Below, one piece after another: positions 48,341 to 58,869 of a stretch of 64,000 bases of DNA. The DNA is taken from NCBI GenBank assembly GCA_001778235.1, contig MFGJ01000008.1:61313-125312 (forward strand), read 5' to 3'. The stretch is from Candidatus Falkowbacteria bacterium RIFOXYC2_FULL_36_12 (GTDB taxonomy: Bacteria; Patescibacteriota; Patescibacteriia; UBA11705). The translations under genes were made by a program, and so were the position numbers. Numbering within the stretch: position 1 is the stretch's first letter; every line of letters begins with the position of its first letter. The notes under the pieces were generated by a model. That model had not been told where the DNA came from and ran no database searches. It saw nothing but the letters and a program-made list of their open reading frames with translations.

Positions 48341-48548
48341 ATTTGCAAATAAATTACCTTCTTCAACCTACCTCGCCTAATCCGGCTCCGTTCGGTCTAA
48401 TCTCACGGTCGAAGGCTAGACAGAATCTTTATCTTTCTCGCTTCCAATTTTAACACATTTTACCCAGACACTCTAATAACCCAACTATCCCCAACCATTT
48501 TATCTAATTTTAGTCAAAAAAAACACCCCCCTTAAAAAATTAATTTGA

Positions 48549-48577: not shown

Positions 48578-48622
48578 TAGATGAAATGTTCCTTACAACT
48601 AAACCCACAGAAAGGAGCCAAA

Positions 48623-51600
48623 ATGCGCATTCCAGACCTAGATTCCTTGAAATATTTTACTGGTAGCAAAATTAACCGAGAGGTGATTATTCCAAAGACT
48701 GAAATTGATGGCAATAAAATCGGTGATCAATTAATTGCACATCCTTCAAATACTAATTTTCGAGACGATCTCCGTGGTCACATCTATACAATAGTTGCTT
48801 TCACCAATGATACCTATAATAAAATATCTGCAATTATGCAATGTGGCGATTTATTGAATAAATGCTTTACATCAGTAGTTGCTGACCTACATGAAAAACA
48901 TATTAGAATCAGAAGTGGTAACACTTTTTTCAGCCAAAATGGAAATAGCTATATTGCCACAGACTCAACCAATCTAGCTGGTTTTTGCGTCAGAGACGAA
49001 CTAGTATGGAAAAATACAGCTGAAGTACCCCAGTGGTTACTATCACAAGATTTATGGCTTAAAAGAAAAGTTATTGTTGGATTCACAAATAGCGCTGAAG
49101 CAATTGTACAAGTTGATGACAAATATCATACCAAACTGACTCTCGACCAATTAACAAGCTTTAACCGAAAGACAAGTGTAATTAGTAGAAATAAAGAATT
49201 CCACTCAATTAGTAATACAGTAATCACTGTCACCGATACTCTTGAATACGAAGGTTACAAGGTAGGTCAAATACTCACATTAAAGACTGTAGATGCCCAT
49301 CCCCTTGTCAGAAACGCCTCAAAAATTGTTGTTGTTGGTTTTACTTCTATGAACGCTATCGTCAAGCAACTTGATTTAAATCTTTGTGTTTTGGATCATC
49401 TAATGGACACTAATAACTTTTTCCACAACACAGAAATAATCGCCCCAGAATTTCAGCATCTCTATCAAACAACACCAAGGGGAGAAACAGCCATGGACAG
49501 CTACTTCCTGCCAGACATTGTACCAAATCAGCAAAAAATTCTAACAGATAATGAAGTTGATTATACTTACTTTACCAATGTTAGAAATACTCAACTTAAT
49601 ATTGGACATGATGGTATTATCATCAATGATAAGTCTTCACTGGAAATGGCTTGCAACCTCCTAGGAATAATTGTTTCCGCCCAATACCCCACCAACTATG
49701 ACGGCCTGCTATGGTGTAGCTACCACAAAGCCAATGACACTGAATTGGCAACTCAAGTTAACACTCGATCTACCAAAATCAGAAAACACAGCTGGAACAC
49801 TGACACCAATCCATTCATCGCAATTATTCGAGAACACTTATTCCCGTACTTGCCTGAAACGATTGATACAGTCGTCTTGGAAGATGCCAATCATACATAT
49901 CGAGCCCCTACCAACAACAGTACTGAATTCCGCATTTTAAACTGGGCCACACCATCTGAAACTCAACAACTTGAACTCCCATCTCTAATCTTTGCTCGAG
50001 TCAGACCATCCTCAACTTCCTATGCTCAAAGTAATCTTGGTTTCGTCATCAGCTGTCCATATACAAAACACGATGTTGCCGAACTGATCGGAAATGATCT
50101 CTACATTCTATTCGATATTTGTCCACATGGTAGTGCCAATGAACTGGAAATTTTCCAAGAAATTATTATTAGAGTAGCAAAATTCTTGCAAATGCCTGAA
50201 GCAGAACAACGAGCCTATGAAAAAAAACTCTTTGACCGCAATAAAATTGTATTGATAAGTTGGAATAGAACTGGTGATAAAACCGAACAAGCCAAAGTCA
50301 CTGCTTCCCGAGCCTTTCATGAAATCACTGGAAAATTTAGCCAAATTAGAATAACTCCATGCACTAAAGAACAAATACCTCTACAAACAGCACAAAGAGC
50401 TGATCGTCCGGATATTCTATCAATTTATCTCTGGGCAGGTATTTCAGACACTACTCCATCCGTCCCATCTCCCAAAAATATTTTTGGTGTTCAAACTCCC
50501 TATCCAGGTGAAGCAGGCTTTTTTGGTTTTGATGCATCTAACATTAGTTATGTAATTTTTGATGGAGAAACAGCAATCGCTGAAATCCTTGGTAATTCTG
50601 TATATGTTCTTCATTCAATCTTCGCGAAGAATGAACCAAACGAACAAAAACTTTTAGAAATTATTTTTGGTAAAATCGCTGATTTCTACAAACTGTCTGA
50701 AGAAGAACAAAAACAAGCTTATACCGCCCAAGCCCCTATTAGAGATGAAATACAAAAAAAAGCCCAGCAGCTTAAAAAAATACAGATTGTAACCTTTGGC
50801 AACATGCGTGCAACAAAAGCAAAGACTATTGCCACCATCTATGAAGCCTTAATGCCAATTATTGAGAATTACCAGAAAATCAAATTTCACTACGGAAATG
50901 CTAAGACACTTAATAATGATGAAACAACCGCCATAGCCAATTCTGATGGTTGTCTAAACATCTATCTCTGGGCTGGTATTGCTGAATCAAATCCAAATGG
51001 TAAAACCGTCAAATCATTTAAAGAGAAGATGTTTGACATAGCAATCCCCCACTATTCTTCTGAACCTCGCTTCACGCCGTCATACAAAGAATATGTAATT
51101 TTTGATGACGACGAACCCATTGCTGAAATTATCAATGATACGATTATTATTCTAGCTCTAGTTTGTTTTGAAAATGACCCACACGAATATCAGTTACTTT
51201 CTGAAACCCTAAAAAGAGCTACTGCGTATTATGTCCTATCACCTGAACAAAAATCAGCACTTGTAGCTACGCAACGCAAACAAAAAAAATTCCGCTATTT
51301 CAATCTGTCATCATATGACCAGTTTAGGACTCAATTAACTTCTTCAGCCAAAACTCATCTTGTACCATTCCTACCCGACGATATACATATACTCAATTTT
51401 TCCTATGATCAAGTTAAAGTAAAAAATGAACATAAAGCCAAAGCAAAAGAATTTAGTGTCCATCTATACGCTTGCCCAGAAGAACAAATAGCCGACCAAG
51501 TTTATTGCCCGAAAACATTACTTGGGATTGCAGGCACTGATACAGACTACAAAGCTTTCACTCTTGAAGGTGAAAACTTTGCTGTAATAGATGATGATAC

Positions 51601-52426
51601 AAAGTTTATTGTCGCTGAATTAATTGGCAACGATCTCTACATTGGTCTGCCGATTCTACGCTTTCACCATGGTCAGGGCTACTCTACCTCTATCAGCTTG
51701 TGCGAAAAAATATTCCAGCAGATTTCTGTTTTTCTACGAATGACTCCAGAAGAACTAAAACTCTATCACGAAGAAAAACTAAAAAGAAATCGTGATCGTT
51801 ATATCTCTATCACTCTAAAACGGCTTGATACTGAAAGACAAGAACACCTTGATAAAATCAATAAAAATGCCGAAAAAATTCAATCCATGGAAAAAGAACT
51901 GATTGAGCTAAGAAGATCCCAAGCAAAAAGTAGCCGTGAATTACAAATGCTTGATAATGAAAATGATACATTCCGAGCAAAGTTAGCCGAAGAATTTGAT
52001 GCTATTATCAAATTCTCAAAAATTGTTGATATTAAAATTACTTCTGATGGAAATTATCTTGTCTGCACCACAAAAACAATCTATGCACGGCATCCTCAAA
52101 CAAAAAAATATCATCAGATTGGTGCTTTCAAAATCATCATGTCAACTCATGGCAGAATAGACGCAAAAATCGTAACCTTTATTAATCTGACAAAAACCAT
52201 TGTCGGGTATAATGGTGATAATTTTTATGCACCGCATGTCTCGGCCACTGGTCATCCATGTCTTGGAACCATTGAAGGAACTTTACCCCAACTTATTGCC
52301 AGTTATGATTTCAGCGCTGCCATAATTCTCTGTATCGGATTCCTCGAGCAAGTAAACATCCATGACAATTGGGGACGCCATATTGATAAATGGGTACCAA
52401 TCCTTGATCAACTGCCCACCACCTAA
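48623..52426 (+). CDS. Large (about 1267 aa) multidomain protein with a C-terminal E2/UBC-like domain (putative Ubl-conjugating enzyme), an N-terminal unknown region and about 4 internal roughly 160-aa repeat modules
   Basis: The C-terminal roughly 130 aa read ...IVGYNGDNFYAPHVSATGHPCLGTIEGTLPQLIASYDF..., which resembles the UBC active-site region (YHPNI..G.ICLDIL) with a candidate catalytic Cys in HPCLG. Repeated modules carry AE(L/I)(I/L)GN.(L/V)Y(I/V)L ... LSEEEQK / MPEAEQR / LSPEQK / MTPEELK. A coiled coil precedes the E2 part. The start is set at the ATG with an RBS; the track ORF begins 14 codons upstream. Confidence 0.55.
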   Translation: MRIPDLDSLKYFTGSKINREVIIPKTEIDGNKIGDQLIAHPSNTNFRDDLRGHIYTIVAFTNDTYNKISAIMQCGDLLNKCFTSVVADLHEKHIRIRSGNTFFSQNGNSYIATDSTNLAGFCVRDELVWKNTAEVPQWLLSQDLWLKRKVIVGFTNSAEAIVQVDDKYHTKLTLDQLTSFNRKTSVISRNKEFHSISNTVITVTDTLEYEGYKVGQILTLKTVDAHPLVRNASKIVVVGFTSMNAIVKQLDLNLCVLDHLMDTNNFFHNTEIIAPEFQHLYQTTPRGETAMDSYFLPDIVPNQQKILTDNEVDYTYFTNVRNTQLNIGHDGIIINDKSSLEMACNLLGIIVSAQYPTNYDGLLWCSYHKANDTELATQVNTRSTKIRKHSWNTDTNPFIAIIREHLFPYLPETIDTVVLEDANHTYRAPTNNSTEFRILNWATPSETQQLELPSLIFARVRPSSTSYAQSNLGFVISCPYTKHDVAELIGNDLYILFDICPHGSANELEIFQEIIIRVAKFLQMPEAEQRAYEKKLFDRNKIVLISWNRTGDKTEQAKVTASRAFHEITGKFSQIRITPCTKEQIPLQTAQRADRPDILSIYLWAGISDTTPSVPSPKNIFGVQTPYPGEAGFFGFDASNISYVIFDGETAIAEILGNSVYVLHSIFAKNEPNEQKLLEIIFGKIADFYKLSEEEQKQAYTAQAPIRDEIQKKAQQLKKIQIVTFGNMRATKAKTIATIYEALMPIIENYQKIKFHYGNAKTLNNDETTAIANSDGCLNIYLWAGIAESNPNGKTVKSFKEKMFDIAIPHYSSEPRFTPSYKEYVIFDDDEPIAEIINDTIIILALVCFENDPHEYQLLSETLKRATAYYVLSPEQKSALVATQRKQKKFRYFNLSSYDQFRTQLTSSAKTHLVPFLPDDIHILNFSYDQVKVKNEHKAKAKEFSVHLYACPEEQIADQVYCPKTLLGIAGTDTDYKAFTLEGENFAVIDDDTKFIVAELIGNDLYIGLPILRFHHGQGYSTSISLCEKIFQQISVFLRMTPEELKLYHEEKLKRNRDRYISITLKRLDTERQEHLDKINKNAEKIQSMEKELIELRRSQAKSSRELQMLDNENDTFRAKLAEEFDAIIKFSKIVDIKITSDGNYLVCTTKTIYARHPQTKKYHQIGAFKIIMSTHGRIDAKIVTFINLTKTIVGYNGDNFYAPHVSATGHPCLGTIEGTLPQLIASYDFSAAIILCIGFLEQVNIHDNWGRHIDKWVPILDQLPTT

Positions 52427-52443: not shown

Positions 52444-53508
52444 ATGGCTGGAGAAAGCTTCTTTTCCGCAATGATGAAAGCTTTTTGGCTTGGTAGATCA
52501 ACTCCACCAGTACCTGTTCAAAGAAGATTATCAACCAGACAACCAACCTACTTTTCTCCAATTAAAACCTCACCTGAAATTTTTATCTCACAAGAAATCA
52601 TTCCACTAATTCTAATTAGCGCCAAAGCTTATGCCAAAATATGGTATTATATCAGAAGTGCTATGAATTTAAGAGATGAAGAAGTCAGTTGGTTTGGAAC
52701 AGTTGATTGGGACAAAAAAACTCACATCATGACCATTGACGATGTTTTCATTCTGAAACAAAACAATACAACCATGAGTACTTCAATTGCTCCCAATGCC
52801 CTCATTGAATTCTGGCAATCTCAACCTGAAGAAGTTACCGCTCGAATTGCTTTTTGGGGACACTATCACCCACATGGCTGTACAGATCCATCACCAAAGG
52901 ACAATGAACAACTATTAGAATTTGCTGACAACAATGATTTCTTCATTAGAGGGATTTTCACTGCTGATGGCAAACTTTGTTTCACGGTTATGCTGACATA
53001 CGACAATAAACCCAACATCATTGTTATGGATGCTCCATGGGATCATGTTGACCCGAGTAACTTCTTTGACTCATCAGTTCAAACCCAAACTGAAAAAGAC
53101 TTTGCAGATGCAGTAAAAACATTTGTGCCTCCACCCAATCGAAGAAGCCGAACACATCATATTCCTCCAAACGATAGAAGATTTGTTCAGGCAACAGATC
53201 CTATTATTCCACCGTATGCCTCCCAAAATGGAACTCATGATATTAAAGCATACCCACTTGCTGGCACAATTGATCATAGACTAAGCCCAGTTATTCCCAC
53301 TTTACCAAGCGCACCAATCACTCCAACTTTTACTTCACCACAAAGAACCGGCTCTGCGACTATAACATTTACCTCTAAACCATCACTCCCTTCCGAAAAC
53401 CATGAACAACCAGAACCATCTTCACCATCTGACCAAAGTCCAGTTGACACTTCTGAAGCACCCACTTCTGATGAAGATCCAGACACAACCACTCTCGAGG
53501 TAAACTAA
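52444..53508 (+). CDS. JAB/JAMM (MPN+) metallopeptidase with a long Pro/Ser/Thr-rich disordered C-terminal tail
   Basis: The conserved Glu (LRDEEVSW) and the JAMM motif H-x-H-x7-S-x2-D read as HYHPHGCTDPSPKD. The RBS gggaggag is present. The C-terminal roughly 150 aa are low complexity. Confidence 0.7.
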   Translation: MAGESFFSAMMKAFWLGRSTPPVPVQRRLSTRQPTYFSPIKTSPEIFISQEIIPLILISAKAYAKIWYYIRSAMNLRDEEVSWFGTVDWDKKTHIMTIDDVFILKQNNTTMSTSIAPNALIEFWQSQPEEVTARIAFWGHYHPHGCTDPSPKDNEQLLEFADNNDFFIRGIFTADGKLCFTVMLTYDNKPNIIVMDAPWDHVDPSNFFDSSVQTQTEKDFADAVKTFVPPPNRRSRTHHIPPNDRRFVQATDPIIPPYASQNGTHDIKAYPLAGTIDHRLSPVIPTLPSAPITPTFTSPQRTGSATITFTSKPSLPSENHEQPEPSSPSDQSPVDTSEAPTSDEDPDTTTLEVN

Positions 53509-54201
53509 ATGTCAACCACACTAAACGAACATCTCAACCTTGTCAGACATCAACAACTTTTCAATCCTGCTGACTTGGAAGATCAAGAAATTCATGTGAT
53601 TGGTGTTGGAGCTACTGGTTCTAGAATTGCCTTATTGCTTGCCGAACTTGGAATTGAGAATCTACATCTCTGGGACTATGATACTGTTGAAGCCCACAAT
53701 GTACCCAATCAAGCTTATGGTCTGCAACATGTTGGACAATTAAAGGTTGATGCTATGGCTGAAATCATTGGAAGAGACACCAAAGCCAAAGTCATTACCC
53801 ATAATGAAAAAGTTGATGGCACTCAACATTTCGAAGGTTATGTTTTCCTGCTTGTTGATTCACTTGAAGCTAGACGACAAATCTATCAAGGAGCTCTAAA
53901 ACTAAATCCTCATATCCAAGCAATAATTGAAACCAGGATGGGCCCATTTGAAGGCAGAGTTTATATTTTCAAGCCAATCAATGTCAAACATGCTAGACAA
54001 TGGGAAAGGTCTGTCACACCAACAGTCCCTGTCCTTGCTTCAGCCTGTGGTACTGTACCTACACTTGGTAGCACCGCTACTCTGATTGCAGGTATGGCAG
54101 TCAACCAATTCATGCGTTGGACAAAAAACTCACTTGAAGTTGAAAATGAAATGATTTTTGCCACAAATCCATGGACAATCTTGACATTTAATTGGGAATA
54201 G
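53509..54201 (+). CDS. E1-like adenylating enzyme (ThiF/MoeB/HesA family), translationally coupled to the JAB gene
   Basis: A Rossmann glycine loop, VIGVGATGSRIALLLAELG, with the conserved acidic pair (WDYD), a degenerate second motif EAHNVPNQ in place of SNLNRQ, and a candidate catalytic Cys in LASACGT. Its ATG directly abuts the JAB stop (taaatg). Confidence 0.75.
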   Translation: MSTTLNEHLNLVRHQQLFNPADLEDQEIHVIGVGATGSRIALLLAELGIENLHLWDYDTVEAHNVPNQAYGLQHVGQLKVDAMAEIIGRDTKAKVITHNEKVDGTQHFEGYVFLLVDSLEARRQIYQGALKLNPHIQAIIETRMGPFEGRVYIFKPINVKHARQWERSVTPTVPVLASACGTVPTLGSTATLIAGMAVNQFMRWTKNSLEVENEMIFATNPWTILTFNWE

Positions 54202-54276: not shown

Positions 54277-54666
54277 ATGCCTGACACTAATGATGAGTTG
54301 AAATTCACAATTGGACAAACTCTAAGAGAAATTGCTAGAACTAATGGTCTTATCCCTGAAAACTTCAAATTCTGTGTTAATGGACGCCGAGTAACTCTTG
54401 ATTACAATGTCTTGGAAGGTGATGTTATTTCTGCTGAATCAATTGATGATTCAGTTATCACTGTCCGAGTCCAGAAAATTCCTGGCAAGGCTAACTACTT
54501 TGATCTTCCTCATGGTGCAACCGTAGAACAGGCACTTAATGTTGCCGGATATAGAAACCTCACATCAGAATTTGAAGTCAAACGAGGTACAGAATATGTT
54601 GCCCTCAATGCTGAAGTCTTTCATAGTGACACTATCGTACTAGCAAGACCAACTACTGGTAATTAA
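54277..54666 (+). CDS. Small tandem beta-grasp (ubiquitin-like) protein ending in Gly-Asn
   Basis: A 129-aa protein. Two roughly 60-aa segments each show ThiS/MoaD-like hydrophobic periodicity (KFTIGQTLREIA...VNGRRV...GDVIS and ITVRVQKIPGK...GATVEQAL...EVKRGTEYV...SDTIVLARPTTGN). A strong RBS, gggagggag, is present and it is the last gene before the terminator. The fold is assigned by inference only. Confidence 0.45.
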   Translation: MPDTNDELKFTIGQTLREIARTNGLIPENFKFCVNGRRVTLDYNVLEGDVISAESIDDSVITVRVQKIPGKANYFDLPHGATVEQALNVAGYRNLTSEFEVKRGTEYVALNAEVFHSDTIVLARPTTGN

Positions 54667-54789: not shown

Positions 54790-55300
54790 ATTAAGCATTT
54801 ACTTTAATATTAAATCCCACGAACATGATAAGCCTCGGGGCTTGCCTGCCGTAATCTTGATGAAGGCAGGTCTGGGGGCTTTCTTGTCGTCAACACCACC
54901 ACTAAGAAAGCATCAAACATGAACATCTCAGGGGCTTGCCTGCCGTAATCTTGATGAAGGCAGGTCTGGAGCGGCAATGCGCGCTACCAACACGCTCATT
55001 TGTCACCCCTGAAATTAATTCAGGGCAGGCTCTGAATTTATTTCAGGGTATAATCAAGCTATCCCTTTATACTCTGAAATCCATCTTCGTTAAAACTTCG
55101 CTGGACAAGCAAGTTCAGAGTGACAAATTGAAATATATAAACAACAATAACAACTAACGCATCTTGCCCGTCTTCATCGTGAAGTCGAGACAGGCTATGC
55201 TTTCAGGCAGGGTGTCAAAAAAACTTGCTTTAGCAAAATGATAACTTACTTTAGTGAAACTTATCATCTTCTTTAATGTTAAATCCCACGAGCTGTCGCT
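54790..55300. repeat. Mosaic repeat region downstream of the ubiquitin-like operon
   Basis: Two module B copies (54833-54872 and 54932-54971) with cacgaacatga..ctcgggg and aagcatcaaacatgaacatctcagggg leaders; gcggcaatgcgcgctaccaacac; module A variants (cacccctgaaattaattcagggcaggctctgaatttatttcagggtat); a 70-bp copy of atccctttatactctgaaatccatcttcgttaaaacttcgctggacaagcaagttcagagtgacaaatt (identical to 22500-22570); and cttgctttagcaaaatgat. Confidence 0.75.
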
Positions 55301-55366: not shown

Positions 55367-56719
55367 CTAATCGTCTCTACGAGAGTTCAGACGAAGTCTC
55401 GCCGTCCCCACACGACCGGACGGCAGTGCCGGCTGATCATTCGAAGGATTCAAAGCCGGTCCACTCACACCACCACCAAGGAGATTACTCTGTGCAGTTC
55501 TGGGTCGAATATCAGTCAAATCACTCTGCAAACTTCTCCAAGGAATGTCCATTGCAGTATAAAGCATAAACATGAGCATTCTTGTTTCCATTTGACTATT
55601 CGGAGGAAACTTGTCCCGATTACGAAGAAGCATAACAGCAGCAGCAAACTGCTTCAACTTCAATTCCATTCTCTCATGTTCCGAAGTCACATCGAGCAGA
55701 CCCCTTTCAACCAACATCAACTTCAATTCATCATCAGTAGTCGCTCCAACCATCAGAGGCAATTCCTTATTCTTCAACAAATTCTTCACATCCACAGATT
55801 CAGCCATCAATTCACGAGGAACTGGAAGAATCGGACCAGCAAACATCTTATTGAAATTCTGATGAGCCACATCAACCGCATCACGCACCATACCAGCGTC
55901 AACAGGTGAAGCAAAACTTACAAGAGAAGCAGTCGCGACAGAATTAGGATTAACCACCTTCTGCATACCAACTTCAATCGCATCATAAAATCTCTGCTGT
56001 CTGAAAACATCCGACGACTCAAACCACTTCTGAATCTGAACTGCAACATTATGCAAGGTTCTCCACAAAAACTTGTCAACTCGCTCATAGAAAACAGCTT
56101 TACGCGCATCATCAACAAAACTTCCATCCTTCGTGATTGCATCCAGAATGTGTCGGTACTGACGCCTTCTAATCTGTCGTTCCAGTGCGTAAAATGCAGG
56201 CTTCGACGGGGAGTCAATTTTCATCTGATGATCAAGCATCATCTTGTGCAAGACTGTTGGAATGCTAAAAAATCCCGTTCTATTAGCAAGTGCAACACTG
56301 ACTGCATAAACAACATCATTTGGCTCAATCAGATCGCGAAGTTCAGTGTCACGCTTCAAAACGCCAACAACAGTGTCATCATCAAAAGCAACATCTCCCA
56401 GCATATCTTCGACCTGAACATCTTCAACTACTTCAGCTTCTTTTTCATCAGCGCCATAAAGCATACCCAGATTCTTACGAAGCACAGCCTTGGGAACAAC
56501 CTTTGTATCAACCAATGCACCACACAAATCACCAAACGGAGCTGACTCTTGAGTCAAGTAATTTACAGCATCATCTTGGTAAATCTGGTCGAGGAAAAGC
56601 GGGTACAGACCATTAGCCAAAGTCTGAACATTCAGATGACATACTTCAGCAAATCTATTCAAACGACTAAGCATACTTTGGTGAAGTCTCTTTAGATCGA
56701 CAGAGACAACTTCGGTCAT
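55367..56719 (-). CDS. Hypothetical protein (451 aa) with G/C-rich codon usage, looking foreign
   Basis: The RBS ggagg lies 7 nt upstream of the ATG at 56717-56719 (MTEVVSVDLKRL...). Third codon positions are rich in G/C, unlike the neighbouring genes. No family recognised. Confidence 0.5.
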   Translation of the reverse strand: MTEVVSVDLKRLHQSMLSRLNRFAEVCHLNVQTLANGLYPLFLDQIYQDDAVNYLTQESAPFGDLCGALVDTKVVPKAVLRKNLGMLYGADEKEAEVVEDVQVEDMLGDVAFDDDTVVGVLKRDTELRDLIEPNDVVYAVSVALANRTGFFSIPTVLHKMMLDHQMKIDSPSKPAFYALERQIRRRQYRHILDAITKDGSFVDDARKAVFYERVDKFLWRTLHNVAVQIQKWFESSDVFRQQRFYDAIEVGMQKVVNPNSVATASLVSFASPVDAGMVRDAVDVAHQNFNKMFAGPILPVPRELMAESVDVKNLLKNKELPLMVGATTDDELKLMLVERGLLDVTSEHERMELKLKQFAAAVMLLRNRDKFPPNSQMETRMLMFMLYTAMDIPWRSLQSDLTDIRPRTAQSNLLGGGVSGPALNPSNDQPALPSGRVGTARLRLNSRRDD

Positions 56720-56889
56720 GACACACCTCCACACACCCTCCGCTGTCACCCCAGCGGGCAAGGTTCGCAGGTCCGCCTTGGCCTGCAAGTCTATTTTATT
56801 TAATTGTAATGACCTTCGCAGAAACCATAATTTACCAAAACTTTTCAACTTTGTCAAACAAATCACATGTTAAACAATTTTCTTCTATT

Positions 56890-58869
56890 TTAGTCAAAAA
56901 GCAAGTTAAACAACTCATCCATCTTTAGCTTACCATCATACACTAAACCCTGTCGAGAACCTGTTTGTGTAAAACTCTTTATATTTTGTTTAAATTGAAA
57001 ATTTAGGCTAATTTTCCACTCTTTTACCCCAGCCTGCTTCTGAATAAGTAGTTTATAATCCTTGTCCCGACTTGCTTCATAAACCGCTTTTGGTAGTTTA
57101 TATTTAATTACAATAGTTTTACTCTGTTTTGGTTCAACTTCAAAGAAAAAACCATAGGCTGATTTATTAAATTCCTTATAAAAATCAACTTCTTCATTTT
57201 TAACTACATCATTGCCTATTTTCAACTCTACAAGTTCACTGCCTTCTGGCACATATACTCGTGTATAACTACGATACCTTGTTGTGCGATAATCAAAAAA
57301 ACCATTATTAATATAAGTCAATTTCAATTCACTTGTATAGCCATTACCACTTTCCGATAATTTATAACTCATTTCTCTGTTCATCACTCTGTCAGTTTTT
57401 AGAGCTGCCAAATTTGCATCTACCACCATCAGATAGTCATCAGGAGTATATTCAATTTTTCCCGCCCATTTTTTTTCTTCAAAATATTTTTGCAAAGTTG
57501 TATCCTTGACATAAATCTGTATAAACTTTTCCTTCATATTTCTGGTAACAACATCAAACAGTTCTTCAAATCTATTTAACGGCAAATTAAACAATCTATT
57601 CTCGAGCTCTTTTGACAATTTGCCAATAATATCTTTTCTGTCACCTTCAGCATCTCCACCTTTTTCAAAATATGCTACTTCCACTTGATACTGCAATTCA
57701 TCTGTAAAATTTTCTTTGGAAAAAGTAACTCCGTCAATGGTTATATTACCAACTAAAGCAATTAGATCTTCTACTAGATTCGGATTGATTGCAATCACGC
57801 CATCAATATTTGCTTCAGGACCTCCCTCAAGATGATAAAACTGTTCAATCTTCTCGGCAGAAGTAGGAAAATCAGACCACCAATTTGCGTCTCGCATAAA
57901 CCATTCTGACATACCAAGATATTTTTTTATTGGTTCAGGTGGAACAGCTAAATTTTTATCTTTTATCTTTACATCCAGATTGTAAATATTATCAGTAGTA
58001 AAACTTTTCAAATCACCATTTTTTACTTTCATGATTCCATAAGTACCGATAAATCCTCCACTTGGACGAAGTTCATCATTATTTTGCAAAATAAATAAAT
58101 ATTTTTTCTCTTGGTCAAGCCCAACAAGGCTTGGCATAACATCTGAAACAGTCGTAAAGGCTTCAAAACCTTTTAACATTGACGGCACAATACTTACCAC
58201 CGCATCTTCAACCGGATCCCAAAAACCATATTTACCCTTACCAATAAAATTCGTATAGGCACTATCAATCTGATCAATTTCTACTTGTGAATGTTTTATC
58301 AGATCACCTATTTCCACTAACTTCTTCAAAATTTGGCTTCTTTCAGCTTCACTAATTTCTGAAAAACTTTTATTACTGGTCTGCCAATCAGCCAAGACAT
58401 TTTCACTTATAGAAAAAATTTCATTGGCTATCTTTGTGGCGTTTGAACCAATAACAATCAGATCTTCAGCCAAATCAACTTCTTTTTTAACAATCGGCAA
58501 ATTGAAAACTGCTTTTTGTTTTAATATTTGTAATTCTTGTTCAGCCGAAAACAAATTATTATTGGCGACTTCCAATCTTTCTTTGGCCGTCTTATAATCC
58601 TTTTGCTCCAAATACTGGGCAAATGCCTGCAGATTGTCTCTCGCATCCAAAACTTCAGCTGTAACTAACTGTATTGAATTCAAATACGGCAATGTTGACA
58701 AACCAAGCAATATTACTACAAGTAAAACCCCAGCCAAAATTAATCCAATAATCTGTGGCAAGAAATGCAATGGCAACAAAAAAAATCTGCTCCAATGAGG
58801 TTTTTCTTGATCCTCTAGTTGCTTTTTTTCAATAAAATTTTGTTTATTAAAACCCTCCATGTATTTCAA
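56890..58869 (-). CDS. DUF4012-domain protein (associated with cell-surface polysaccharide biosynthesis)
   Basis: An N-terminal transmembrane helix and a large domain with LRPSGGFIGTYG, characteristic of DUF4012. It lies next to GT2 genes. Confidence 0.65.
   Translation of the reverse strand: MKYMEGFNKQNFIEKKQLEDQEKPHWSRFFLLPLHFLPQIIGLILAGVLLVVILLGLSTLPYLNSIQLVTAEVLDARDNLQAFAQYLEQKDYKTAKERLEVANNNLFSAEQELQILKQKAVFNLPIVKKEVDLAEDLIVIGSNATKIANEIFSISENVLADWQTSNKSFSEISEAERSQILKKLVEIGDLIKHSQVEIDQIDSAYTNFIGKGKYGFWDPVEDAVVSIVPSMLKGFEAFTTVSDVMPSLVGLDQEKKYLFILQNNDELRPSGGFIGTYGIMKVKNGDLKSFTTDNIYNLDVKIKDKNLAVPPEPIKKYLGMSEWFMRDANWWSDFPTSAEKIEQFYHLEGGPEANIDGVIAINPNLVEDLIALVGNITIDGVTFSKENFTDELQYQVEVAYFEKGGDAEGDRKDIIGKLSKELENRLFNLPLNRFEELFDVVTRNMKEKFIQIYVKDTTLQKYFEEKKWAGKIEYTPDDYLMVVDANLAALKTDRVMNREMSYKLSESGNGYTSELKLTYINNGFFDYRTTRYRSYTRVYVPEGSELVELKIGNDVVKNEEVDFYKEFNKSAYGFFFEVEPKQSKTIVIKYKLPKAVYEASRDKDYKLLIQKQAGVKEWKISLNFQFKQNIKSFTQTGSRQGLVYDGKLKMDELFNLLFD

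Follow-up and report, generated by a model that had tools for sequence, protein, structure and literature searches.

An E2-like protein with four diverged modules, encoded beside JAB, E1 and ubiquitin-like genes in a Candidatus Falkowbacteria genome

The window, meaning the whole 64,000-nucleotide stretch of Candidatus Falkowbacteria bacterium RIFOXYC2_FULL_36_12 DNA analysed here, contains a cassette of four genes in the order E2-JAB-E1-Ubl. The NCBI record for the E2-like protein is hypothetical protein A2223_02130, Candidatus Falkowbacteria bacterium RIFOXYA2_FULL_35_8. Its open reading frame (ORF) is 48581..52426 (1281 aa), within which position 48623 is Met15, an ATG with an AAGGAG Shine-Dalgarno sequence 6 nt to its 5′ side. 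Residues are numbered on the 1281-aa ORF (subtract 14 for Met15 numbering), which is laid out as an extension, an N-domain, four diverged modules, a coiled coil and a C-terminal E2-type domain. The features are as follows.

48623..52426, plus strand: E2-like protein gene, 1,267 aa from Met15 (ORF list and translation)
48623..49492, plus strand: lineage-specific N-terminal extension, aa 15-304, without detectable homologue
nt 48710-48850, 48980-49120 and 49253-49375, plus strand: weak repeats of the extension, with marginal repeat statistics
49493..49753, plus strand: family N-domain, aa 305-391 (phmmer alignment to homologues)
49772..50212, plus strand: module copy 1, aa 398-544 (HMM from homologues only, E 2.9e-28)
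50240..50713, plus strand: module copy 2, aa 554-711 (HMM E 1e-15), with IYLWAGISD at nt 50423-50449
50774..51256, plus strand: module copy 3, aa 732-892 (HMM E 3.4e-13), with IYLWAGIAE at nt 50960-50986
51296..51760, plus strand: module copy 4, aa 906-1060 (HMM E 2.1e-16), joined directly to the coiled coil
51746..52012, plus strand: coiled-coil stalk, aa 1056-1144, a 71-residue helix and then a 17-residue helix into the E2 fold
52013..52426, plus strand: predicted UBC/E2-fold domain, aa 1145-1281, containing APHVSATGHPCLG
nt 52235-52237, plus strand: His1219, preceding Cys1227
nt 52259-52261, plus strand: putative catalytic Cys1227 (Cys1213 in Met15 numbering)
52444..53508, plus strand: JAB/JAMM peptidase, 354 aa, with E-V-S-W-F-G and H-Y-H-x7-S-P-K-D motifs read from sequence
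53509..54201, plus strand: minimal E1, 230 aa, a single ThiF-type adenylation domain (Pfam ThiF, 1e-20)
54277..54666, plus strand: ubiquitin-like protein (Ubl), 129 aa, core beta-grasp at about aa 59-129 ending in ...TTGN, with an extra N-terminal region of about 58 aa

The E2-like protein has no credible match in Pfam, NCBIfam, PADLOC or PHROGs. Matches to DUF87, EfaA, ZapG and PmgS-like entries lay far below threshold and were rejected as coiled-coil or chance similarity, and neither the protein nor the family profile drew anything but coiled-coil noise from PDB sequences. Word-indexed searches, with the whole protein or with a window-led alignment, returned only the self match; homologues were found by exhaustive HMMER and then by a search seeded with P0013, a canonical family member. 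The HMMER search yields 1,561 representative clusters at E≤1e-3 and 694 at E≤1e-10 (clusters at 50% identity, at least 1,500 in the family). By sequence, this appears to be an E2-like family without a match in Pfam, NCBIfam, PADLOC or PDB sequences. Its usual form is about 445 aa long and consists of the N-domain, one module, a coiled coil of about 90 residues and the C-terminal domain; the conserved core is the module, the coiled coil and the E2 domain. One module is the norm: among 201 homologues, 154 have one, 40 have two, five have three, and one each has four and five. Searching with a 10-sequence alignment identified 13 related loci in genomes, mostly of CPR/Patescibacteria, and none in viral contigs.

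A preliminary description of this DNA had reported at least four copies of an internal repeat of about 160 residues in the window protein, and self-BLAST, shuffle z-scores and the homologue-only HMM confirm them. Fragment self-BLAST finds significant internal repeats beyond low-complexity similarity, pairing aa 602-692 with 781-873 (the best, E 4.5e-13), 495-560 with 1007-1076 (E 7e-9) and 484-556 with 653-724 (E 3e-8). Smith-Waterman comparison against shuffled sequences gives z = 4.3 to 22 across all six module pairs, and in five of the six the observed score was reached by 0/300 shuffles. The HMM was built solely from homologues in other organisms, and each of its matches covers nearly the full length of the model. 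The units are 147-161 aa long with a period of 156-178 aa, and carry an A-E-(I/L)-(I/L)-(G/N) signature at aa 500, 667, 848 and 1012. Since pairwise identity between copies is only 16-27%, they are diverged domains, neither low complexity nor an assembly duplication. The intervals first given for the copies captured only their C-terminal 40% or so; each module starts about 100 aa earlier, and the array begins at about aa 398, a boundary absent from that description. The segment IYLWAGI(S/A)(D/E) does occur exactly twice (aa 615-623 and 794-802) but does not precede the modules as a separate element: it aligns with the FHIWIWSSP strand of the family and is a strand within the module, with degenerate equivalents in copy 1 (FRILNWATPSE, 450-460) and copy 4 (FSVHLYACPEE, 958-968).

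Copy 1 is most like the canonical form, and its best BLAST match is the P0005 module (34% identity, 81 bits), above the protein's own copies. Copies 2 and 3 are near-reciprocal best matches (copy 2 is best for copy 3, and copy 3 second-best for copy 2, at 58.5 versus 60.5 bits) with residual DNA similarity of 74-79%; copy 3 is the sister of copy 2.

Copy 4 was modelled with high confidence (model of aa 908-1281). The module model shows a helix/sheet/helix layout, and its closest structural neighbours include the GH42 middle domain, IFT52 GIFT and OST48. It compares with class I glutamine-amidotransferase-like structures (GATase1, ThuA, GH42 middle, IFT52 GIFT, OST48) at 5-14% sequence identity and is poorer in helices than a complete GATase1 domain. 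The module is predicted to be an alpha/beta domain of about 150 residues with a glutamine-amidotransferase-like fold. Pfam matched none of 61 module sequences and likewise nothing in ten homologues. Degenerate E2/UEV-like domains were considered for the modules, 'LWAGI' resembling the E2 'W.a.I.GP' strand, and rejected, since hhalign put the probability of a match between module and C-terminal domain at 0.2% and no E2 is among the structural neighbours of the model of the module alone.

Residues of four motifs (VPH, IWSSP, DCRD and HHDxCH) are present in 47-78% of single-module proteins, a polar constellation that suggests ligand or metal binding in these relatives. None of them occurs in any of the four window copies, where only the A-E-(L/I) Glu remains, and other multi-module proteins conserve them poorly too. 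In the window modules the Cys, His and Ser that the family conserves are missing, and there appears to be no Cys-His-Glu triad. What precedes the catalytic domain is, as first proposed, a repetitive array, and it looks non-catalytic.

The family N-domain begins at Met305: in phmmer alignments the first residue of canonical homologues falls opposite aa 305 of the window protein, and the sequences match from there on (E down to 8e-7). Met305 is the retained ancestral start codon (MDSYFLPD versus canonical MKNYFL), and the Shine-Dalgarno-like sequence AAGGGGAG stands 5′ of it at 49493. The first 290 residues are a lineage-specific extension fused ahead of that codon, and given the internal start signal some of the protein pool may be without it. 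Searches of 214 family proteins, of ORFs at the 13 related loci and, by tblastn, of phage records yielded no homologue of the extension. It contains three weak repeats at a spacing of about 90 aa, of the form GxK(I/V)GxxL ... hhV(G/A)FT ... AI(V/M)Q. Two copies of a unit had been noted here, and both 'VGFT' motifs are present, KIVVVGFTSMNAIVKQLD at aa 248-265 (copy C) and KVIVGFTNSAEAIVQVDD at aa 163-180 (copy B); what had been taken for a duplicated domain is, however, a short motif of marginal significance, with a third, weaker copy IYTIVAFTNDTYNKISAIMQCGD at aa 68-90 (copy A). A G-x-(K/C)-(I/V)-(G/R)-x-x-L block lies 22-28 aa before each motif, and local alignments among the copies span 16-20 residues only. 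Among 4000 shuffles the B-C score was reached by 40-52 (p ~0.01) and the A-B score by 183-405; A versus C was not significant.

The C-terminal domain is predicted to adopt a UBC/E2 fold with putative catalytic Cys1227 and His1219. Its model has the N-terminal helix, antiparallel beta-meander, active-site loop and helix of that fold, and its Foldseek matches include UFC1. The motif P-H-x7-C-x-G is invariant in alignments of 29 and 10 sequences and near-invariant (≥90%) in one of 68; it is PH rather than HPN, with the conserved Cys preceded by the His. Neither the protein nor a 29-member profile gave a sequence-profile match of this domain to E2 families in Pfam, NCBIfam, PADLOC or PDB sequences.

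A JAB peptidase and an E1 adjoin the E2-like gene in all 13 related loci, and a Ubl in 11 by BLAST clustering of neighbours (eight by phmmer from the window Ubl). Across these loci there is no other conserved neighbour and no E3-like or further partner gene. The JAB peptidase, which has a Pro/Ser/Thr-rich tail, matches PADLOC JAB models weakly (E 0.0035). The E1 carries an invariant S-A-C-G cysteine in the alignment, has MoeB, UBA5 and UBA3 as its nearest solved relatives, and matches PADLOC E1-E2 models over the Rossmann segment only; its homologues are 227-341 aa long at 13/13 loci. The Ubl profile weakly matches MoaD, SAMP2 and ThiS (E 0.007-0.09), and all 11 Ubl sequences have ...G-N at the end or at a domain boundary, some running past it into further domains. 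A 499-aa minus-strand ORF lies outside the cassette, and none of the 13 related loci carries a homologue of it. A scan of the island for promoters and terminators gave nothing above shuffled expectation. Flanking genes of the related loci look, by eye, like housekeeping genes, so gene context points neither to a target nor to defence.

Most likely, the modules form a non-catalytic array that binds targets or serves as a scaffold on an E2 that works without an E3. In this pathway the JAB peptidase would remove the Asn after the terminal Gly of the Ubl, just as Bil Ubls require JAB trimming of residues after Gly (PMC10557695). The minimal E1, as a homodimer, would adenylate that Gly, and Cys1227 would then take over the Ubl as a thioester. 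Binding or positioning the target would fall to the N-terminal array of extension, N-domain and four pseudo-enzyme modules, making the protein a self-contained E2/E3-like hybrid, with the coiled coil giving oligomerisation and reach. Target binding is proposed because the cassette has no E3, and by analogy: Bil E2s too have been proposed to recognise targets directly (PMC11601596, PMC10557695). We give an even chance to this reading as a whole, in which the gene product is an E2-type Ubl-conjugating enzyme of a CPR-centred family without a name and its four pseudo-enzyme modules and extension bind targets. The purpose served may be defence or another.

Target binding may be countered by the fact that known non-catalytic domains of the module fold, such as the GH42 middle domain, often serve oligomerisation. 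The modules could instead be purely architectural, spacer or oligomerisation domains that set E2 length, valency or assembly while target choice lies with another part, such as the E2 domain or the Ubl. Non-catalytic assembly domains (GH42 middle, IFT52 GIFT, OST48) among the closest structural neighbours, the lost polar motif, the ever-present coiled coil and a copy number free to vary from 1 to 5 all fit such a role. Yet mere spacing would hardly require every copy, at 16-27% identity, to retain a recognisable 150-aa fold that the HMM matches over its full length, and the polar residues conserved in single-module relatives suggest ligand or metal binding; we consider the architectural role a distinctly less probable account. 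E2s commonly auto-modify, and the array might be a substrate or regulatory decoy whose lysines receive the Ubl, yielding a Ubl-decorated scaffold or an E2 held in check. The linkers of the array read as Lys-rich and the gene context suggests no external target, but nothing supports this specifically, and a fold kept across about 1,500 clusters, single-copy forms included, is more than a lysine carrier needs; we regard it as improbable. That the modules are active enzymes (hydrolase, amidotransferase or isopeptidase-like effectors, making a multi-enzyme protein) is still harder to sustain. The fold class does include Cys-His-Glu amidotransferases and DJ-1/PfpI-type hydrolases, and single-module relatives conserve His, Ser-Ser, Cys-x-Asp and His-His-Asp-x-Cys-His, but no enzyme sequence family matches, other multi-module proteins conserve these residues poorly, and their absence from all four window copies makes the 'effector' of the preliminary description unlikely. 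Its multi-Ubl-like array is barely credible: other cassettes of bacteria do include poly-Ubl proteins (PMC1779556, PMC10557695), but the units (147-161 aa, not the expected ~70-80) are modelled as helix/sheet/helix with no beta-grasp among their structural neighbours. Chance or compositional similarity in an AT-rich genome (GC 0.30-0.41), or an assembly artefact, can be set aside given z up to 22, no shuffle of 300 reaching the score in five of six pairs, an HMM from other organisms that finds all four copies, and identities too low for a collapsed or duplicated assembly.

That bacterial Ubl conjugation (Bil, Bub, CBASS Cap2) is real chemistry was demonstrated only recently, and how E3-less systems choose targets is a current question. 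This family, concentrated in CPR bacteria, which have tiny genomes and a poorly understood biology, combines an E1 of the smallest kind with an E2 carrying a built-in domain array of variable copy number. More tentatively, the cassette could represent a further ubiquitination-like family of bacteria, centred on CPR/Patescibacteria, distinct from Bil, Bub and CBASS and not found described in the literature searched, whose E2 bears an expandable recognition array of one to five glutamine-amidotransferase-like modules borne on the coiled coil, with a target range tuned by module duplication, loss of an ancestral ligand or metal site and capture of N-terminal domains, the 290-aa extension being an example; if so, it would be a prokaryotic E2/E3 hybrid of tunable target range. 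Were the array a targeting device, proteins with one to five modules, with and without the polar motif, would form a natural series for studying E2 specificity in E3-less systems. Otherwise the map of domains, the putative catalytic residues and the definition of the cassette can still be used for annotation.

Compared with the known Bil and Bub systems, the cassette is neither, on E1 architecture, His/Cys order and the lack of DUF6527. Bil (BilABCD, Type I/II) likewise comprises four genes (Ubl, E2, JAB and E1) without an E3, in anti-phage operons (PMC10557695, PMC11601596), and its Ubl also has one or more residues after the reactive Gly that need trimming, a trait shared by the wider kind rather than Bil-specific. 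Its E1, however, is an IAD-AAD-CYS protein of about 500 aa with PF14459 (PMC10557695, PMC11601596), against a 230-aa single ThiF domain here; its E2 is small and stand-alone, and the Cys precedes the functional His (CEHH), whereas here the His comes first and the domain is fused to a coiled coil and one to five modules; and its gene order differs. The E2-like protein has no sequence match among solved structures, which we assume to include the published Bil complexes (PMC10557695), or in PADLOC. Bub (6E/DUF6527) is also a bacterial Ubl/E1/E2 cassette with frequent fused domains and variable Ubl architectures, but needs the DUF6527 serine protease and uses Ser/Tyr oxyesters without catalytic cysteines (PMC11601596); PF20137 (DUF6527) matches none of five island proteins, and conserved Cys residues stand in the E2 domain and in the E1 S-A-C-G. 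Type II CBASS (Cap2/Cap3) has an E1-E2 fusion beside a CD-NTase and an effector, whereas E1 and E2 are separate genes here and the island has no CD-NTase. In the UFM1 pathway, too, the E1 is minimal, a single domain of the UBA5/MoeB type, and is paired with a short E2 of UBC fold (UFC1) that apparently lacks the C-terminal helices; but that pathway is eukaryotic and has UFL1 as a separate E3, shows neither a coiled coil nor a module array, and is related in sequence only through the ThiF core. UBE2O and BIRC6, large eukaryotic E2/E3 hybrids, are likewise very long, with substrate-binding N-terminal domains and a UBC domain close to the C-terminal end, and UBE2O has a coiled coil before its UBC domain and SH3-like repeats; homology to them is not detectable and their non-catalytic folds are others, whereas the protein described here has a dedicated E1 and Ubl encoded next door.

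A large, uncharacterised Ubl-conjugation cassette family, centred on CPR bacteria, has a signature non-catalytic module, and in the window protein this module is amplified four-fold. The cassette lies on the plus strand of an AT-rich window (GC 0.30-0.41) whose minus strand carries almost all of the genes. It is laid out as follows, together with a neighbouring open reading frame (ORF):

48581-52426, plus strand: ORF of the E2-like protein, 1281 aa
3' of the E2-like gene, plus strand: JAB protein, 354 aa, with JAMM signature E-V-S-W-F-G ... H-Y-H-x7-S-P-K-D and weak PADLOC JAB matches
3' of the E2-like gene, plus strand: ThiF-type E1, 230 aa (Pfam 1e-20)
54277-54666, plus strand, 3' of the E2-like gene: Ubl, 129 aa, C-terminal TTGN
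55367-56866, minus strand: 499-aa ORF inside the putative island

Residues are numbered by the 1281-aa ORF; numbering from Met15 is lower by 14. The start at 48623 chosen in the preliminary description is Met15, and since AAGGAG lies six bases 5' of it, a product of 1,267 aa is likely. An identical sequence at NCBI, from Candidatus Falkowbacteria bacterium RIFOXYA2_FULL_35_8, is annotated as a hypothetical protein.

The preliminary description had claimed at least four repeat modules in the E2-like protein, and this is borne out. The A-E-(I/L)-(I/L)-(G/N) signature appears four times (aa 500, 667, 848 and 1012); fragment-versus-protein BLAST gives off-diagonal matches with E as low as 4.5e-13; and all six pairs among the four segments reach Smith-Waterman z = 4.3 to 22 over shuffles, a self-similarity significant beyond low complexity. 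The strongest test, one independent of the window protein, is a module HMM made from 29 homologues from other organisms with the window protein left out. It finds four matches, each nearly of full module length:

aa 398-544: module copy 1, homologue-only HMM 2.9e-28
aa 554-711: module copy 2, homologue-only HMM 1.3e-15
aa 732-892: module copy 3, homologue-only HMM 3.4e-13
aa 906-1060: module copy 4, homologue-only HMM 2.1e-16

The copies are 16-27% identical to one another, which rules out low complexity or an assembly artefact as the source of the repeats. The intervals first assigned to them covered only the C-terminal ~40% of each unit. IYLWAGI (aa 615 and 794), which had been read as a segment ahead of the module, is actually an internal strand; it lines up with FHIWIWSSP of the family and has degenerate forms in copy 1 (FRILNWATPSE) and copy 4 (FSVHLYACPEE). 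Copies 2 and 3 come close to being reciprocal best matches (the top match of copy 3 is copy 2; the reverse is second-best by 2 bits) and still share 74-79% DNA identity, in short stretches only; copies 1 and 4 are closer to modules of other proteins than to one another. The duplication is therefore mostly ancient or quickly diverging.

Word-indexed homologue searches with the window protein returned it as the sole match. With aa 82-1281 as query, HMMER was run exhaustively against 1.84 billion cluster representatives; 1,561 proteins passed E<=1e-3, of which 694 passed E<=1e-10 and 75 passed E<=1e-30. A typical member has ~445 aa: an N-domain of ~80 aa is followed by a single module, a long helical stretch and, at the C-terminus, a domain of ~135 aa. 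Among 201 homologues, 154 carry one module, 40 two, 5 three, 1 four and 1 five; module amplification is therefore recurrent in the family, with four copies close to the upper limit of its range. Pfam domains and informative names were absent from all homologues examined, and a 29-member family profile matched no solved structure by sequence.

A structure model of aa 908-1281 (67 homologues in the input; mean pLDDT 88) gives the module as a helix, seven strands and a helix, the coiled-coil segment as a 71-residue helix and then a 17-residue helix, and the C-terminal domain as six strands with three short helices. The best 20 Foldseek matches are all E2s (UbcH7 at probability 0.98, UBE2H, UbcH5, Ubc13, UBE2S, UBE2K and UBE2L6 among them), with UFC1 and Atg10 further down at ranks 24-48 and probability <=0.25. 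Judged by the model, the window protein is a real E2-fold protein. A glutamine-amidotransferase-like fold is suggested for the module at a moderate score, the argument being superfamily consistency across matches; no sequence support for this fold class was found. Profile comparison shows the module and the C-terminal domain to be unrelated. A beta-grasp (Ubl) fold for the modules is excluded by the structure models, so the multi-Ubl-like array once proposed is set aside.

The columns that are strictly invariant in two family alignments all belong to the C-terminal domain; among them are P-H and, eight residues away, C-x-G. Those of a 68-sequence alignment fall in that domain or the helix entering it, and in this alignment the His and Cys are near-invariant (>=90%). 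Their counterpart in the window protein is APHVSATGHPCLG, with His1219 and Cys1227; in the model it is placed between the last strand and the following helices, the HPN...Cys site of E2s. The 154 single-module proteins keep a different set of polar residues: the H of VPH in 108/154, the S of IWSSP in 117/154, the C and D of DCRD in 97/154 and 98/154, the residues of HHD in 91/154, 100/154 and 120/154, those of C-H in 73/154 and 101/154, and a downstream E in 120/154. In the family alignment, over residues ~125-205 of the canonical single-module member P0013, the motifs shared by single-module proteins are VPH, IWSSP, DCRD and HHD-x-CH-x-G-x3-E. Together they resemble a site for catalysis or for binding a metal or ligand, carried by a glutamine-amidotransferase-like fold. 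The polar residues are far less conserved in multi-module proteins, and all four window copies lack the constellation, its sole remnant being the near-universal Glu of A-E-(L/I); by this criterion they are pseudo-enzyme copies of the domain or copies without a ligand site.

Ahead of the modules are two VGFT motifs, at aa 163-180 (B) and 248-265 (C), and a third, weaker copy at aa 68-90 (A), each preceded at a similar distance by a G-x-(K/C)-(I/V)-(G/R)-x-x-L block. The copies can be aligned over 16-20 residues only; the B versus C score was matched by 40-52/4000 shuffles, A versus B by 183-405/4000, and A versus C had no significance against shuffles. Of the duplicated N-terminal domain claimed earlier, the short motif pair stands, but duplication at domain length is weak on these figures. 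The pattern is compatible with, and only suggestive of, three small beta-rich domains ~90 aa apart. Since aa 305-391 align to residues 1-80 of canonical (~445-aa) members, and Met305 (ATG 49493; MDSYFLPD versus canonical MKNYFL) keeps AAGGGGAG 8 nt upstream (window 49453-49495), aa 15-304 are an extension joined in frame ahead of the ancestral start. No relatives of the extension were found among 214 family proteins, related-locus ORFs or phage records. With the ancestral start and AAGGGGAG retained, the gene may yield a canonical protein of 977 aa in addition to the full-length one of 1,267 aa; another reading is that an upstream ORF, now the first 290 codons, was fused to it recently.

The analysis covered 13 genome loci that encode relatives of the window protein: five in Saccharibacteria, one each in Paceibacterota, Parcubacteria and Buchananbacteria, one in an unclassified Patescibacteria MAG, one each labelled Flavobacteriaceae, Thermoanaerobaculia and Obscuribacterales, and one unclassified. 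The gene is adjoined in 13/13 by homologues of the JAB protein (E 1e-14 to 1e-23; one weaker, 5.5e-6) and of the E1 (E 1e-44 to 1e-61); a small Ubl homologue is present in 11/13 by BLAST clustering of neighbours and in 8/13 by phmmer with the window Ubl; and no further neighbour is conserved across the 13. The E1s, whose closest solved relatives are MoeB, UBA5 and UBA3, share an invariant S-A-C-G and measure 227-341 aa as mechanical ORFs (first start codon after stop), several probably over-extended N-terminally. All Ubls end in ...(K/E)-I-x-G-N, except that in three loci (L010 10054-10668, L011 10986-11726, L012 10512-11324) the chain does not stop at G-N but goes on into a second Ubl-like unit, a long helical tail or both, as would be expected if a peptidase cut after the Gly. 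The Ubl profile gives weak, consistent matches to MoaD, SAMP2, PF1061 and ThiS (E 0.007-0.09). In the window Ubl, ~58 additional residues at the N-terminus show a ThiS-like V-N-G-R-R-V...G-D-V-I pattern, and this Ubl may therefore have two domains. The C-terminal ~140 aa of the window JAB protein (53083-53508) form a long Pro/Ser/Thr-rich tail, probably disordered; most of the related loci encode homologues of 237-294 aa that lack it. By eye, the flanks of the related loci hold what we take to be housekeeping genes (LepA, SerRS, FtsQ, an epimerase, CCA-adding enzyme, MutM), so no defence-island signal is evident in them.

In the window, an imperfect 28-nt direct repeat (82% identical; 48493-48520 and 56873-56900, 8,380 nt apart) brackets exactly the cassette and the minus-strand 499-aa ORF. 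The segment has higher GC (0.36-0.41 versus 0.32-0.35), sits between dnaE and minus-strand housekeeping genes, and may be the insertion scar of a mobile island. The 499-aa ORF had no Pfam, NCBIfam, PADLOC or PHROG match, and none of the 13 related loci has an equivalent of it. A 700-nt non-coding gap 3' of the Ubl gene contains two copies of a 54-nt element (54822-54875 and 54916-54969) that are 89% identical and offset by 94 nt. Both copies enclose a GCCTGCC...GGCAGG hairpin, and beyond them is a 20-bp perfect-ish hairpin (55007-55048).

We propose that the JAB protein would remove the terminal Asn of the Ubl, and that the minimal E1, presumably a homodimer like MoeB and UBA5, would adenylate the exposed Gly, possibly via the S-A-C-G cysteine; the Ubl would then pass to Cys1227 of the E2 domain and on to a target lysine. 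Three observations suggest that the N-terminal array would be an adaptor, or a positioning device, built into the protein, with the coiled coil serving for oligomerisation: there is no conserved E3 or other partner; the non-catalytic part differs in copy number and in its lineage-specific additions; and Bil E2s are thought to do their own target selection (PMC10557695, PMC11601596). With four module copies on an E2-fold protein, the repetitive scaffold proposed upstream of the E2 domain holds; the main rival to an adaptor is that it is purely architectural, as related folds have assembly roles in GH42, IFT52 and OST48. Auto-modification or a decoy function is possible. An enzymatic array, the earlier effector reading, is unlikely in the window protein, the polar residues having been lost from all four copies.

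The cassette would resemble Bil in operation as an E3-less Ubl cassette. It is not a Bil member, because the E1 and E2 architectures differ (Bil E1s are IAD-AAD-CYS proteins with PF14459, and Bil E2s are small with the His after the Cys; PMC10557695) and Pfam, PADLOC and PDB sequence searches found no link. It is not Bub, because the DUF6527 protease is missing and cysteines are present (PMC11601596), nor CBASS Cap2, because the E1-E2 fusion and CD-NTase are both missing. Literature searches found no description of a comparable CPR cassette. In combining a minimal E1 with a short E2, the cassette is similar to UBA5/UFC1. UBE2O, a eukaryotic E2/E3 hybrid, binds substrates through a long N-terminus and has a coiled coil ahead of its C-terminal UBC domain, and the overall design of the window protein recalls hybrids of this type.
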